A DNA stretch of 61,963 nucleotides, filler included, from Nitrospirae bacterium CG2_30_53_67 (GTDB lineage: Bacteria; CG2-30-53-67): assembly GCA_001873285.1 (NCBI GenBank). It is 6 parts of 6 records of this genome, joined end to end, with 100 filler letters (N's around TTAATTAATTAA, not from the genome) between each part and the next. Parts side by side here need not be neighbours in the genome. Positions count along the whole stretch, not along the records: positions 1 to 16,398 come from MNYV01000123.1; 5 more parts are not named here. One strand, 5' to 3'. Shown one piece after another: positions 10,080-57,436 of this stretch (its first letter is position 1; the number at the start of each line of letters is the position of its first letter). Under the pieces are notes generated by a model, which did not search any database, was not told where the DNA came from, and was given only the letters and a program-made list of their open reading frames with translations. The translations under genes and the position numbers were made by a program.

Positions 10080-10562
10080 ATGATACGAGGAGATGAGGAT
10101 ATTGCCGAAGGTCTTCTGAATGCCTTCCGGCTTGAAAAAGGGGCCCATGCGTTCTATGAGGCTGCATCCGAGCGCGTACAGGACAGGAGCGCCGTGGAGA
10201 TGTTCAGAAAGCTTGCCGACGTCGAAGAGAGGCATATGCACGACGTCTACGATCTCTATCATGCCTTTATCGGGGACCGCGGTCCGGTTCCTTTTCCGGA
10301 GTTCAAAGAAAAGATGCCTGCCGAATACACCGAGAGCGGCAAGACCATCGAGGCTGCGCTATCGGACGTGCAGGGCCGCTTCTTCATGGACGCGAAGGAG
10401 GTTCTGCGCGTGGCCCTGCAGGAGGAGAGTTCGGCCCTGGACCTCTACACCCGGATGGCGGAACGTTCCGAGGACCCCGGCACGGCCGCGCTCTACAGGC
10501 AGCTTAGCGGCGAGGAGGAGGAGCACAAAAGCATGATCGAGAAGACACTCAAGGGGCTTTAA
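10080..10562 (+). CDS. Ferritin-like (rubrerythrin-domain) protein
   Basis: EKGAHAFY..EERH and EESSALDLY..EEEH; AAGGAG RBS before ATG 10080. Confidence 0.88.
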   Translation: MIRGDEDIAEGLLNAFRLEKGAHAFYEAASERVQDRSAVEMFRKLADVEERHMHDVYDLYHAFIGDRGPVPFPEFKEKMPAEYTESGKTIEAALSDVQGRFFMDAKEVLRVALQEESSALDLYTRMAERSEDPGTAALYRQLSGEEEEHKSMIEKTLKGL

Positions 10563-10566
10563 TCAA

Positions 10567-10992
10567 GGATTATCTCCAAAAGAATGGGTGAGAACATAAG
10601 GGTCCAAGGGTTCAAGGGTTCCAGGGGTCAAGTGAAGTGCTTTTCAATACTTGAGGGTCCGAGGGGCCAAGGGTTCAAGGGGTCAAGTGAAGTGCTTTTC
10701 AATACTTGAGGGTCCGAGGGGCCAAGGGTTCAAGTGAAGTGCTAAAAATAACATAAGGGGCCGAGGGTTCTAGTGTTTTTCTCTGGAGATTTTACTTGAG
10801 TTTAAGTATTTCACTGGACCCCTTGACCCCAAGATACCTCAGTGTAGTAGCCGTCGCAGACGGTCCCGGCCCGGCAAGAATAGATTCAAGTAGATGCCGG
10901 GATCTAACGACAAAAATAGAGAAAAGCGGGGCACGCGAAGCGTAACCCTGGAATCCTCGAACCCTTTTACCCCACTATGTGGGAGAAGAACC
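10567..10992. mobile_element. 8-nt tandem-repeat element, two-armed (copy B), with internal 55-bp duplication and nested insert
   Basis: Left end TCTCCAAAAGAATGGGTGA, G-rich arm, core CTCTGGAGATTTTACTTG, C-rich arm, right end CCCAC..GTGGGAGAAGAACC. Confidence 0.8.
10831..10945 (+). mobile_element. Small element inserted into the 8-nt repeat (115-nt form)
   Basis: AAGATACCTC...CGAAGCGTAA; matches the reverse complement of 36109-36176 apart from 47 extra nt (10864-10910) and one substitution. Confidence 0.75.
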
Positions 10993-11001
10993 TTAATTAA
11001 A

Positions 11002-11613
11002 GTGAGACCATTGTATATCCTGGGGCTATCAGGAAGTCCGAGGCGCCATGCCAACTCCGAGACCCTTCTGGACCAGGTCCTGAGCGGGGCATCCGAGGCA
11101 GGCGCCGAAACCGGGAAGATCATCGCCTCGGGTTTCCAAAATCTTCGCCCCTGCGTGAACTGCGGAGATTGCCTGAAGACCGGCCGGTGCCGCGTCCAGG
11201 ATGAGATGCAGGAGATCTATCCCATGCTCGACCGGGCTGACGGACTGGTGGTGGCCTCTCCGATCTACTTCATGGGGGTCTCCGCCTTTCTGAAAATCAT
11301 CATCGACCGATGTCAATGCTACTGGTCACGCAAATATGTTCTCAAAGAGCCGCTCTTTCCCGAAGACCCCAAACGGATCCGCAAGGGGCTCTTTCTTGCA
11401 ACCGCCGGCCATGACAAACCCGTGGTCTTCCAGGGGGCCAGGATGACGGTTCGAGCCCTGTTTGATGTTCTGGATGTTTCTTACCTGGGCGAATATTTCG
11501 CAACACGCATGGAGAAGCCCAGGGATATTCTTGATGTGGAAGGGGCCATGAGTTCCGTCCACGACATGGGAAAGCGGCTGGTGGAGGAACTGAAAGGGCT
11601 GCCCCATGAATGA
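11002..11613 (+). CDS. Iron-sulfur flavoprotein / flavodoxin-like (NADPH-dependent FMN reductase family)
   Basis: GSPR..NS, CVNCGDC..C, ASPIYF. The ORF extension to 10894 is repeat DNA. Confidence 0.9.
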   Translation: MRPLYILGLSGSPRRHANSETLLDQVLSGASEAGAETGKIIASGFQNLRPCVNCGDCLKTGRCRVQDEMQEIYPMLDRADGLVVASPIYFMGVSAFLKIIIDRCQCYWSRKYVLKEPLFPEDPKRIRKGLFLATAGHDKPVVFQGARMTVRALFDVLDVSYLGEYFATRMEKPRDILDVEGAMSSVHDMGKRLVEELKGLPHE

Positions 11614-16398: not shown

Positions 16399-16498
16399 NN
16401 NNNNNNNNNNNNNNNNNNNNNNNNNNNNNNNNNNNNNNNNNNTTAATTAATTAANNNNNNNNNNNNNNNNNNNNNNNNNNNNNNNNNNNNNNNNNNNN
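16399..16498. other. Artificial contig linker
   Basis: N-run, TTAATTAATTAA, N-run. Confidence 0.98.
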
Positions 16499-32738: not shown

Positions 32739-32838
32739 NNNNNNNNNNNNNNNNNNNNNNNNNNNNNNNNNNNNNNNNNNNNTTAATTAATTAANNNNNN
32801 NNNNNNNNNNNNNNNNNNNNNNNNNNNNNNNNNNNNNN
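32739..32838. other. Artificial contig linker
   Basis: N-run, TTAATTAATTAA, N-run. Confidence 0.98.
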
Positions 32839-34894: not shown

Positions 34895-36064
34895 ATGGAT
34901 TTTGTTTTTCGCAGAATTGAACGGATGCCTCCCTATGTCTTCGCCATCGTGAATGATCTGAAGATGAAGGCACGGCGCCGAGGGGAAGACATCATTGATC
35001 TCGGGATGGGGAACCCGGACCAGGGGACGCCGAAACATATCGTGGACAAGCTGATCGAAGCGGCCCGGAACCCCAAGAACCACCGATATTCCGCTTCCAA
35101 AGGGATCCCTAAGCTCCGGTCGGCCATTACCGACTGGTATCAGGAGAAGTATAACGTAGAACCGGATCCGGAAAGCGAGGCCATCGCCACCATCGGCTCC
35201 AAGGAAGGGATGTCGCACCTTGCCCTGGCCCTGTTCGGTCCCGGGGATACGGTCCTGGTCCCCAACCCGACCTATCCGATCCATGCATACAGCGTGATCA
35301 TCGCCAACGGGGATGTGCGCCATGTGCCCCTGATGCCGGATACGGATTTTTTCGAAGAGCTGCGCAAGGCCTACGTGCAGGCCTGGCCGAGGCCCAAGGC
35401 CATGATCATCAGTTTTCCGCACAACCCGACCACGCAGGTGGTGGATCTCGGCTTCTTCGAAAAGATCGTCGCCTTTGCCAAGGAAAACAGCGTGATCGTG
35501 ATTCATGATCTGGCCTATGCCGAGCTCGTCTTCGACGGTTATACCGCGCCGAGCTTTCTGCAGGTCCCCGGGGCCATGGATGTGGGCGTTGAGTTTGTCA
35601 GCCTTTCGAAGAGCTATAATATGCCGGGCTGGCGCGTGGGATTTGCCGTAGGGAACAGCAGGATCATCGGCGCCCTGACCCGGATGAAGAGTTACCTGGA
35701 TTACGGGATGTTCCAGCCGATCCAGATCGCAGCCATCATCGCGCTCAAGGGCCCGCAGGATTGTGTGCAGGAGATCGTGGAGCTCTACCGGTCGAGAAGA
35801 GACACCCTCTGTGACGGTTTGAACCGGATCGGCTGGGAGATGGAAAAACCCAAGGCGACCATGTTTGTCTGGGCCCGCATTCCCGAAAAATACAGGGCCA
35901 TGGGGTCGCTCGAGTTTTCCAAGCTCCTTCTGGAAAAGGCCAAGGTCGCGGTCTCGCCGGGCGTTGGGTTCGGTGAGTATGGAGATGAGTATGTCCGGTT
36001 CGCTCTGGTGGAAAACGAACACCGGACAAGGCAGGCGGTCAAGGGGATACGGACATTGTTTTGA
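34895..36064 (+). CDS. alaC: Class I/II PLP aminotransferase (AlaC-like)
   Basis: [35 protein letters not shown]. Confidence 0.85.
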
Positions 36065-36074
36065 GAAATTGTTT

Positions 36075-36259
36075 AGGGTCAGGGTCCAAGGGGTCAAGGG
36101 TTCCATGGTTACGCTTCGCGTGCCCCGCTTTTCTCTATCTTTGCCGTCTGCGACGGCTACTACACTGAGGTATCTTGGGGTCAAGTGAAATGCTCAATGA
36201 TCAAGTCGTTAGAACACAGACACTCGGACCCTTGAATCCTGGAACCCTCGAACCCTTTG
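36075..36259. mobile_element. 8-nt tandem-repeat element (copy D) with four-helix-bundle remnant and 68-nt insert
   Basis: G-arm, insert 36109-36176, CAAGTGAA-ATGCTCAA, remnant IKSLEHRHSDP*, C-arm. Confidence 0.8.
36109..36176 (-). mobile_element. Small element inserted into the 8-nt repeat (68-nt form)
   Basis: Homologous to 10831-10945, with the same flanking context. Confidence 0.75.
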
Positions 36260-36320
36260 TGCCGTAGTAAGCGGGAGAGCAGTCTTTTTTGACTGATTTT
36301 TCAATGCCGCAGAGGATGAA

Positions 36321-40210: not shown

Positions 40211-40379
40211 GATCATCTCCAAAAGAGTGGGTGAAAACATCAGGGGTCAAGGGGTCAAGGATTCCAGGGGTCAAGTGAAGTGCTGAAAACATAAGGGGCC
40301 GAGGGGTAAAGGGGTCGAGTGAACTACTCAAACCCTTGAACCCTGGAACCCTTGAACCCACAAAATGGGAGAAGGATCA
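40211..40379. mobile_element. 8-nt tandem-repeat element, two-armed (copy F)
   Basis: GATCATCTCCAAAAGAGTGGGT...ACCCACAAAATGGGAGAAGGATC. Confidence 0.82.
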
Positions 40380-49235: not shown

Positions 49236-49335
49236 NNNNNNNNNNNNNNNNNNNNNNNNNNNNNNNNNNNNNNNNNNNNTTAATTAATTAANNNNNNNNN
49301 NNNNNNNNNNNNNNNNNNNNNNNNNNNNNNNNNNN
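49236..49335. other. Artificial contig linker
   Basis: N-run, TTAATTAATTAA, N-run. Confidence 0.98.
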
Positions 49336-52872: not shown

Positions 52873-52972
52873 NNNNNNNNNNNNNNNNNNNNNNNNNNNN
52901 NNNNNNNNNNNNNNNNTTAATTAATTAANNNNNNNNNNNNNNNNNNNNNNNNNNNNNNNNNNNNNNNNNNNN
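52873..52972. other. Artificial contig linker
   Basis: N-run, TTAATTAATTAA, N-run. Confidence 0.98.
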
Positions 52973-57196: not shown

Positions 57197-57296
57197 NNNN
57201 NNNNNNNNNNNNNNNNNNNNNNNNNNNNNNNNNNNNNNNNTTAATTAATTAANNNNNNNNNNNNNNNNNNNNNNNNNNNNNNNNNNNNNNNNNNNN
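57197..57296. other. Artificial contig linker
   Basis: N-run, TTAATTAATTAA, N-run. Confidence 0.98.
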
Positions 57297-57436
57297 AGGG
57301 GTCAAGGGGTCAAGGATTCCAGGGGTCAAGTGAAGGGCTAAAAACATAAGGGGTCGAGGGTTCAAGGGTTTTTCTCTGGAGATTTTGCTTGTGTTTCAGC
57401 ATTTCACTTGAATCCTCGACCCCTTTTTACCCGCTA
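57297..57436. mobile_element. 8-nt tandem-repeat element (copy I), left end cut by the gap
   Basis: G-arm as in copy F, core CTCTGGAGATTTTGCTTG as in copy B, short C-arm. Confidence 0.82.

Follow-up and report, generated by a model that had tools for sequence, protein, structure and literature searches.

A 61,963-nt stretch of DNA from the groundwater bacterium Nitrospirae bacterium CG2_30_53_67 (hereafter the window) carries two copies of a 68-nt non-coding element, both placed at the same position of a C-rich 8-mer repeat. Analysis of the whole genome and of its relatives revealed a family of about 50 loci whose shared block is the core of tRNA-linked repeats (TLRs) of the RtT type, found behind tRNA-Ser genes in the same bacterial family. 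The family's tRNA-linked units fit the TLR design, and the window copies are the TLR core alone. What is new here is a TLR core spread away from tRNA genes, for which the nearest known kind is the TLR/RtT repeat. We give about an even chance to the element being a miniaturised, non-autonomous insertion module, that is, a detached RtT-like core. What is shown is its copy number, the constancy of its junctions and orientation, the existence of several host sequences both with and without it, covariation of its hairpin and colinearity with RtT units.

The window joins six contigs (C94, C95, C98, C102, C104 and C108) of one draft metagenome-assembled genome (MAG) by runs of N at 16399-16498, 32739-32838, 49236-49335, 52873-52972 and 57197-57296, across which synteny and distances are meaningless. 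The source genome (G000) comprises 183 contigs and 2.37 Mb at 53% G+C and is 95% complete; the two window loci lie on separate contigs, C94 and C98. Loci were counted by blastn against the whole genome and then by nhmmer with a hidden Markov model built from 34 seeds, and the comparison covered eight relatives, giving nine family genomes including G000. Chance expectations for matches in the window come from 100 shuffles.

A discrete block with fixed junctions and orientation

The long copy occupies 10831..10945 on the plus strand (115 nt, the 68-nt element plus a 47-nt internal insert) and the short copy 36109..36176 on the minus strand (68 nt); the equivalent blocks span 10827-10944 (CCCC...GCGTA, 118 nt) and 36110-36180 (CCCC...GCGTA, 71 nt). 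The two copies differ by one A/G position and by the 47 nt (10864-10910) added after position 33. Exactly two window matches exist for the left 33 nt of the element, at 10831-10863 (+) and 36144-36176 (-), and exactly two for the right 30 nt, at 10916-10945 (+) and 36109-36138 (-), with none expected from shuffles in either case. Each copy follows the left flank CTTGACCCC, an 8-mer unit on the C-rich strand at 10822..10830 (+) for the long copy and at 36177..36185 (-) for the short one. On the right stands the next 8-mer unit, CCCTGGAA, at 10946..10953 (+), or CCATGGAA, at 36101..36108 (-), giving the junctions CTTGACCCC|CCCTGGAA and CTTGACCCC|CCATGGAA. The unoccupied site TTCCAGGGGTCAAG (reverse complement of CTTGACCCCTGGAA) occurs as the same 14-mer at 10619..10632, 40262..40275 and 57317..57330 (all +), and window shuffles expect no such match. 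G-rich 8-mer arms 5' of the long copy, at 10590..10770 (+), form the antisense partner of the C-rich arm that bears the element.

Both copies contain two hairpins. Hairpin 1, a 6-bp stem closed by a GNA triloop, lies at 10850..10864 (+, GCCGTC-GCA-GACGGT) and 36143..36157 (-, GCCGTC-GCA-GACGGC); hairpin 2 (ACGC-GAA-GCGT) lies at 36111..36121 (-) and, together with a conserved GGGG that precedes it, at 10928..10943 (+). The insert (10864..10910, +) has a CCCGGC...GCCGGG hairpin of its own. An earlier sequence-only reading of this DNA had described the positions of both copies, their flanks (from CTTGACCCC to CC(C/A)TGGAA) and the three uninterrupted sites correctly throughout. It had also noted the lack of terminal inverted repeats (TIRs), and we agree: judged by reading, AAGATACC... 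at one end and ...GCGAAGCGTAA at the other do not form an inverted repeat, and the TIRs with a fixed-length target-site duplication of a classical miniature inverted-repeat transposable element are absent.

Across the genome, blastn returned 39 full copies plus orphan ends, and nhmmer detected 50 loci, 43 of them full length; by form, 27 are short, 14 long, 2 internally deleted to ~46 nt and 7 partial or divergent. Two of the 14 long loci (C65 and C89) stand at contig ends with identical flanks and may be one locus. The long subfamily, defined by the 47-nt insert, is also present in the sister species G001, and no free-standing copy of the insert was found. An isolated hairpin-1 variant (GCCGCC-GCA-GGCGG) joined to the first 19 nt of the insert lies in unrelated context at C81:2713-2747 of G000. 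By crude calling of open reading frames (ORFs), every copy is intergenic, and copies stand in every orientation relative to neighbouring ORFs, with no pattern. Orphan ends on C147, C62, C46, C35, C183, C81 and C61 are truncated or internally deleted copies beside unrelated sequence. The search for longer versions with the same ends enclosing a transposase or recombinase, suggested by the sequence-only reading, returned none in the genome, nor any enclosing another gene, with the orphan ends checked.

Among 47 extracted copies, the left flank is NCCC in 42 (CCCC 30, ACCC 7, TCCC 5) and the right flank CCCT, CCAT, TCCT or CCTT in 40, the exceptions being truncated or mis-anchored by the extraction pattern; the junction consensus reads T-(T/G/C)-G-A-N-C-C-C|AAGAT...GCGTAA|C-C-C-T. 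On the 8-mer arrays, every copy of the element occupies the C-rich strand. In the 36 copies with 150 nt available on both sides, a G-rich arm lies within 200 nt upstream (in the element's orientation) in 31 and downstream in none, and C-rich units follow downstream in 26. In a test of pairing between the left NCCC and GGGN, copies with T have A in 9 of 9 cases and copies with C have G in 35 of 48; the rows are related to one another, and three of the T cases read CAC rather than CCC.

The 8-mer units (GGGTTCAA, GGGGTCAA and their complements) build mosaic intergenic repeats in the window (10590-10995 and ~36040-36270) and throughout the genome. These mosaics run from a G-rich arm through a spacer to a C-rich arm and have imperfect inverted ends (ATCTCCAAAAGAGTGGGTGAAAAC... 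and ...TTTTTACCCACTAAATGGGAGAAGAACC); their G-arms fit the G3N5 spacing of quadruplex-forming sequence, and the 8-mer units resemble a T-loop plus stem (TCGAATCC). Element-bearing repeats account for a large share of the lineage's intergenic repeat load, and in this MAG assembly repeats break contigs, with many copies at contig ends.

Filled and empty versions of the host sequences delimit the block. The class-B host unit consists of CTCCAGAGAAAAACAC, n 8-mers and TTATGTTTTTAGCAC; at up to 3 mismatches, 127 rows matched the left anchor and 71 both anchors, the other 56 including 4 visibly element-bearing rows and many false matches. Of the units with both anchors, 54 are uninterrupted (16-69 nt, 28 of them exactly 32 nt) and 17 bear the element (95-158 nt, 7 exactly 103 nt). 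Since 103 = 32 + 71, the filled unit equals the empty unit plus 71 nt (68 + CCC), a difference that fits the short GGG core or duplication proposed earlier. A class-C repeat ('GGACTTTTTACGAAG'; ...GACGAAGGAYGMAGCGCA|ACGCCGCAGAYGGACTTTTTACGAAG) was read in G000 as 2 filled (C33 and C36) and at least 10 empty copies, and filled copies occur in three other genera as well. In G007 the block lies inside a multi-copy ~250-nt repeat at many contig ends (TTTGA|ATTTAC), and in G002 at one non-array site (CAAA|ATAA). Common to all contexts is a 71-nt block, CCCCAAGAT...GYGTA, between A|A. Because the block starts (A)NCCC and the site continues A(C/T)CC, the junction slides by up to ~4 bases, and a 3-nt duplication or none fits equally. 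The sequence-only view of insertion at a single nucleotide of the 8-mer repeat was right about the fixed position and the one orientation within that repeat and too narrow about the host: the block lies in other repeats and in T-loops as well as in the 8-mer arms. A second, ~150-nt repeat family with inverted ends GATGGACTCGTAAAAAGTCC ... GGACTTTTTACGAAGCCGTC has a dozen or more copies in G000 (C8, C57, C61, C75, C81, C105, C122, C141, C175 and others), and contains GGATGA(A/G) near the point at which two of these copies hold the element.

Closely similar elements were found between dissimilar distal flanks. The C1 and C98 elements are 100% identical and their distal flanks 42% and 38%; for C98 and C161 the elements are 97% identical and the flanks 17% and 33%, and for C92 and C125 97% against 25% and 25%, all flank values coming from ungapped comparison, which may understate likeness. 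Such copies, 97-100% identical between unrelated distal flanks, rule out the case, raised in the sequence-only reading, of both window loci deriving from one arm copied wholesale. With blastn, 7 of 8 sister genomes gave a match to the element, as did 0 of 32 genomes from outside the family. A strict two-word pattern applied to 185,579 species returned 31 loci, 29 of them in five MAG records of the lineage (labelled Nitrospirota, Nitrospirae or 'bacterium') and the other 2 being chance matches in coding DNA with no hairpin.

At orthologous positions, the C98-locus spacer of five relatives (G001, G003, G004, G005 and G007) is ~34-100 nt long without array and element, and the C94-locus spacer of G001, the one relative read, is 153 nt long with a different repeat, again without array and element. 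This G001 spacer is filled by the ~150-nt family described above (GATGGACTCGTAAAAAGTCC ... GGACTTTTTACGAAGCCGTC). The G001 orthologue of the C98 spacer (locus L022 of G001:C27, ~2371-2470) holds a different short-period array, GGTTCAAGTCGTTCAAACAGTTCAAATGG... and its complement, so that related genomes fill the same spacers with different array types. Beyond these genomes, 23 public runs contain the DNA, all of them groundwater or aquifer metagenomes represented by contigs only, with no RNA run among those listed, and the contigs break within repeats. Contigs of four runs show joints such as 10827>10946 (skipping 118) and 10863>10911 (skipping 47), with sides of 20-41 letters; these most likely stem from paralogous arrays and short-form copies and are uninformative about excision at this locus.

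Covarying hairpins and colinearity with tRNA-linked repeats

To describe the conservation of the element we used 84 unique copies from the nine genomes. Hairpin 1 is paired in 489 of 504 cells, with compensatory changes on both sides at all six pairs (at pair 5, T-A in 48 copies and C-G in 35). Pairing reaches 90% in its 24 distinct stems, compared with 79% on average and 85% at most in 2000 shuffles; 71 of 84 copies, and 29 of 40 distinct stem-loop forms, have a GNA loop. Hairpin 2 keeps its shape despite change, with ACGC-GAA-GCGT in G000, ACAC-TTCA-GTGT in G007 and long forms elsewhere. The unpaired stretches CCCAAGAUACC and AAAGCGGGRCAC are conserved across five genera along with the covarying stems. 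Single-sequence DNA folds gave the two small hairpins only, with z of -1.8 and -2.1, unremarkable alone. C(GNA)G triloops are unusually stable in DNA, which inclines us towards a single-stranded DNA stage in the life of the element.

The same block recurs next to tRNA genes. A ~150-nt unit stands behind each of three consecutive tRNA-Ser genes in G005 and consists, in order, of a strand complementary to the tRNA 3' end, GAUGAGAA...GGUUCGA, the block, and AAUCC plus the tRNA's last bases through CCA. This design is repeated behind tRNA-Ser(cga) on contig C131 of G000 and in G002, G003 and G004. Units of this kind, bearing the core directly behind tRNA-Ser, are present in G000 and four sister genera. 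The 3' end of the units equals the last 19-20 nt of the tRNA including CCA (e.g., ...AATCCCTCTCTCTCCGCCA), and the block splits the T-loop at TTCGA|ATCC of these tRNA-Ser 3' copies. In one tRNA-Ser(cga) gene of G004, complete in all other respects, the block interrupts the T-loop (GGTTCGA|block|ATCCCTCTCTCTCCGCCA); 700 nt upstream of this gene lies a copy that is intact. In the tRNA-linked units, as in class-C copies, hairpin 2 is a ~45-nt hairpin, and the dispersed 68-nt form corresponds to the core minus ~38 nt between CACGCG and AAGCGT. Within locus L046/L037 of G004:C229, at 1-1800, we observed a dense tRNA-Ser(cga) cluster of whole, truncated and T-loop-interrupted copies, with tRNA-linked units carrying two tandem cores (the second core type with GGGGGACUGGCCCG...) and GGACAGA repeat runs between copies.

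The dispersed copies stand apart from such genes. ARAGORN found no tRNA gene on C94 or C98; in the window copies the terminal GCGTAA runs straight into CCCTGGAA or CCATGGAA, with no tRNA 3' end, and these copies and ~45 others lie in 8-mer arrays and other repeats, not beside tRNA genes. The identity of the block as the core of tRNA-linked, RtT-like repeats, and its occurrence beyond the 8-mer arrays, had escaped the sequence-only reading.

Covariance models match between the family's tRNA-linked units and E. coli RtT in both directions, if weakly. The Rfam RtT model (RF00391) matched the G005 units over their full length at 30.5, 27.6 and 25.9 bits. In all, it aligned from end to end with six tRNA-linked units, spread over 4 of 8 sister genomes, at 26.2-31.9 bits; it matched in 0 of 6 genomes of other families and 0 of 142 further genomes (E 1e-3), and among 14 control genomes it matched E. 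coli alone. The covariance model R1, built from ten family units, recovered 4 of 4 RtT units of the E. coli tyrT-tyrV locus over their full length (17.1-21.9 bits, E 1e-4 to 3e-3, 71 kb), and in this 71-kb search at E up to 1 it had no match beyond RtT units and element copies; the window copies scored 51 and 34.7 bits. In the R1 alignment, hairpin 1 falls on E. coli GUUGCC-GCA-GGCAAC, and 4 of 4 E. coli units have 68 nt between GGTTCGA and ATCCTTCCCCCACCACCA, where the family has 71 nt. The shared feature is a ~70-nt core that splits the T-loop (GGTTCGA ... ATCC), with a 6-bp triloop hairpin ~20 nt in. Positions 10300-11300 of the window matched no Rfam family at E up to 1, RF00391 included, and the window copies depart from the TLR definition in having no adjoining tRNA gene, no tRNA 3' end and no RF00391 match of at least 45 bits.

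Several properties of the E. coli repeats, which include the RtT RNA (rttR) of the tyrT-tyrV operon, are relevant here. TLRs have been known in E. coli since 1978, and K-12 has ten loci with 22 of them in total; they are recognised by 18-19 bp at the 3' end that repeat the end of the preceding tRNA or rRNA; they are said to have 'no known function', an early stringent-response claim having been withdrawn; and their RNAs are transcribed and processed (PMC8144298, which cites Egan & Landy 1978 and Rudd 1999). RtT-family RNAs adjoin tRNA-Asn and tRNA-Lys genes in Pasteurellaceae (PMC4986893), and among Erwinia strains one RtT was gained and one replaced by tRNA (PMC7542023). We found an RtT unit in 4741 of 5426 complete E. 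coli genomes, at 1-14 places per genome (median 3) and with 18 places on plasmids; copy number thus varies within the species.

Candidate enzymes and competing explanations

In the scenario that we favour, the core would have its conserved home in the T-loop of tRNA-Ser 3' copies (at TTCGA|ATCC), and in this genus it would have lost most of hairpin 2 and spread to ~50 loci. Entry would always involve the whole 71-nt block (CCCCAAGAT...GYGTA) in a single orientation, with the two A's of a T-loop-like site on either side; many such sites may be supplied by the C-rich 8-mer units (TTGA|ACCC). The element would move, or would recently have moved, as DNA through an enzyme acting in trans. Our preferred guess is a hairpin-recognising HUH/Y1-type enzyme, namely an IS200-like protein or a tyrosine transposase associated with repetitive extragenic palindromes (REP; RAYT), acting on single-stranded DNA; we identified no cognate enzyme.

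Y1/RAYT-type genes are present in all nine family genomes, with three Y1_Tnp loci in G000. A RAYT-like protein of 326 aa from C69 scored 82.4 bits against NF047646 (cut-off 80) and matched PF01797, while PF08299, a DnaA-type C-terminal domain, stayed below cut-off; each sister genome yields 3-6 matches to this protein, some partial or stop-broken. The C69 gene (L001, G000:C69:14368-17694, 878-1922) sits between two genes, with 17-22-nt inverted repeats GGGGTCAGACATTGATA..., and its paralogues (L050 and L051) carry different inverted repeats, GGTGTCAGGCCTTGACA... and GGGTCAGATCTACACATT...; all of these look like discrete cassettes. RAYT cassettes end in ...TCTGACCCC, twice followed by AAG, which resembles the left junction of the element, GACCCC|AAGAT; with few cases, this is a lead. 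As the specific partner of the element, RAYT was rejected on account of its own flanking repeats and its wide occurrence in genomes without the element. Two IS200-like genes, C109:43270-43673 and C125:13480-13770, are cut by contig ends and preceded by 1-3 copies of a ~40-nt repeat (..AAATAGGGACAGCGCCCATTTTTACTTG..). The gene linked to this repeat is probably a multi-copy insertion sequence that breaks the assembly.

A number of observations weigh against the detached, mobile core. On the enzyme side, no Y1 gene bounded by the element's hairpins was seen among the three Y1_Tnp loci of G000 and seven RAYT loci of the family, and the RAYT family occurs without the element in 5 of 5 sister-family genomes and in 20 of 31 overall. 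The two hairpins are dissimilar, unlike IS200/IS605 ends, and about one sixth of hairpin-1 loops are not GNA. On the genomic side, relatives lack the whole mosaic at the C98 locus, not the element alone; no filled-versus-empty orthologous site for the element alone was found in relatives or metagenome contigs, and the sole other metagenome contig with the C98 locus (identified by a 22-mer unique to it) carries the element. Since 8-mer arrays expand and contract, elements at different array positions do not have to stem from separate insertions. Element subtypes follow the flank classes (ACCTCAG in class A, GCCTTAG in class B), so at least some of the spread may reflect copying of the host mosaic, element included. 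The link to RtT has its own weak points: the family units score below the Rfam gathering score of 45 bits for RF00391, and the E. coli and Nitrospirota-type cores are alike in layout, not in sequence.

In an alternative that we regard as somewhat unlikely, the block is immobile alone and serves as a functional RNA module of mosaic intergenic repeats that spread and recombine whole, as in motif shuffling in the bacterial interspersed mosaic elements (BIMEs) of E. coli. Its constant position would then follow from how the mosaic is built, namely antisense G-arm, spacer, core and sense C-arm. In favour of this, the arms keep a regular order, with the G-arm preceding the element in 31 of 36 copies and following it in 0 of 36, which mirrors the TLR series of antisense arm, core and sense arm. 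Element subtypes also vary together with the flank classes, and it is whole mosaics that are missing at orthologous loci. Conservation of CCCAAGAUACC and AAAGCGGGRCAC together with covarying stems is what a functional RNA would show, and E. coli TLRs are transcribed and processed (PMC8144298). Against it, the same block with the same ends is found in at least five unrelated host sequences, most units of which are empty (54 of 71 in class B and most in class C); identical elements have unrelated distal flanks, copies stand in every orientation relative to ORFs, and those with truncations, internal deletions or the insert have the look of selfish DNA in decay.

Two further routes would keep the block mobile by other means. 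Spread through RNA, in which a tRNA-Ser operon transcript is processed and the core reverse-transcribed and integrated at T-loop-like sites, would suit the conserved copies inside tRNA operons, which end in a tRNA-like minihelix with CCA, and the processing of TLR RNAs from such transcripts in E. coli (PMC8144298). We consider it very unlikely, as the ends of the dispersed block (after TTCGA and before ATCC) are not known to be processing sites and its 5' ends are precise, whereas ragged truncation is usual for reverse transcription. Highly improbable, in our view, is the IS110/IS1111 link raised by the sequence-only reading, under which the element would be a non-autonomous derivative directed to its repeat by a bridge or seek RNA together with a short core common to both. 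Orientation- and site-specific insertion into a repeat, the lack of TIRs and CCC on both sides agree with it, but PF01548 has no match in the 95%-complete G000, which contains no DEDD transposase. The single genes of this type carried by 4 of 9 family genomes have no sequence in common with the element, ends included (nhmmer, run at E up to 10, gave no match between these loci and the element); all sister genomes contain the element, with or without an IS110-type gene, and no longer copy with the same ends exists. The wider description of a non-autonomous, repeat-targeting parasite fared better, for the element is short, non-coding, multi-copy, without a transposase and fixed in its site; only the family named for it was wrong.

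Taken further, the detached-core reading leads to a general proposal that we think unlikely: TLR/RtT cores may be widespread, ancient and tiny hairpin-bearing mobile DNAs that home to the A|A of T-loop-type sequences and are moved in trans, with the copies described here in an 'escaped' state, multiplying in T-loop-like 8-mer arrays. If true, this would explain the split T-loop and the variable number of E. coli TLRs. The ~50 tRNA-distant copies, with their sharp junctions, empty sites and graded series (long and short hairpin 2, internally deleted, insert-bearing), make the TLR question testable in terms of insertion at a T-loop-like A|A, strand form and enzyme.

Comparison with known systems

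Elements of the IS1111/IS110 group that insert into REPs resemble the present one in that they enter a genomic repeat in a fixed orientation, with a short core in common, and differ in that this genome has no DEDD transposase and that no ends are shared with the few family copies. REPs, BIMEs and the paired REPIN hairpins associated with RAYTs are likewise short intergenic hairpin repeats in tens of copies, with RAYT-type genes present and a mosaic architecture. A GTAG, which we take to be a REP hallmark, lies just 5' of hairpin 1. The element has, in contrast to a REPIN, no inverted pair of identical hairpins, and the RAYT genes bear inverted repeats of their own (GGGGTCAGAC..., GGTGTCAGGCC...).

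The palindrome-associated transposable elements (PATEs) of the IS200/IS605 type offer a likeness in the lack of TIRs and of a clear target duplication, in strand-specific insertion beside TYGA and in subterminal GNA hairpins. Hairpins and strand specificity are both present here; with a junction that can be placed anywhere over (A)NCCC, a 3-nt duplication is possible. The differences are that no IS200/IS605 copy carries the element's hairpins, the contig-end Y1 genes bearing a different repeat, and that complementarity between guide and cleavage site is not evident at the element's left end.

Closest are the TLR/RtT repeats. The dispersed copies differ from them in lying away from tRNA genes, a dispersal of the TLR core that was not found in the literature consulted on TLRs, and in a core sequence unlike that of E. 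coli. The likeness lies in the design: the family's tRNA-linked units carry GGAUGAGAA, GGUUCGA, a strand complementary to the tRNA end and the tRNA 3' end with CCA; a block of 68 nt (E. coli) or 71 nt (family) splits the T-loop, with a 6-bp GCA-loop hairpin at equal distance; and covariance models match in both directions, if weakly.

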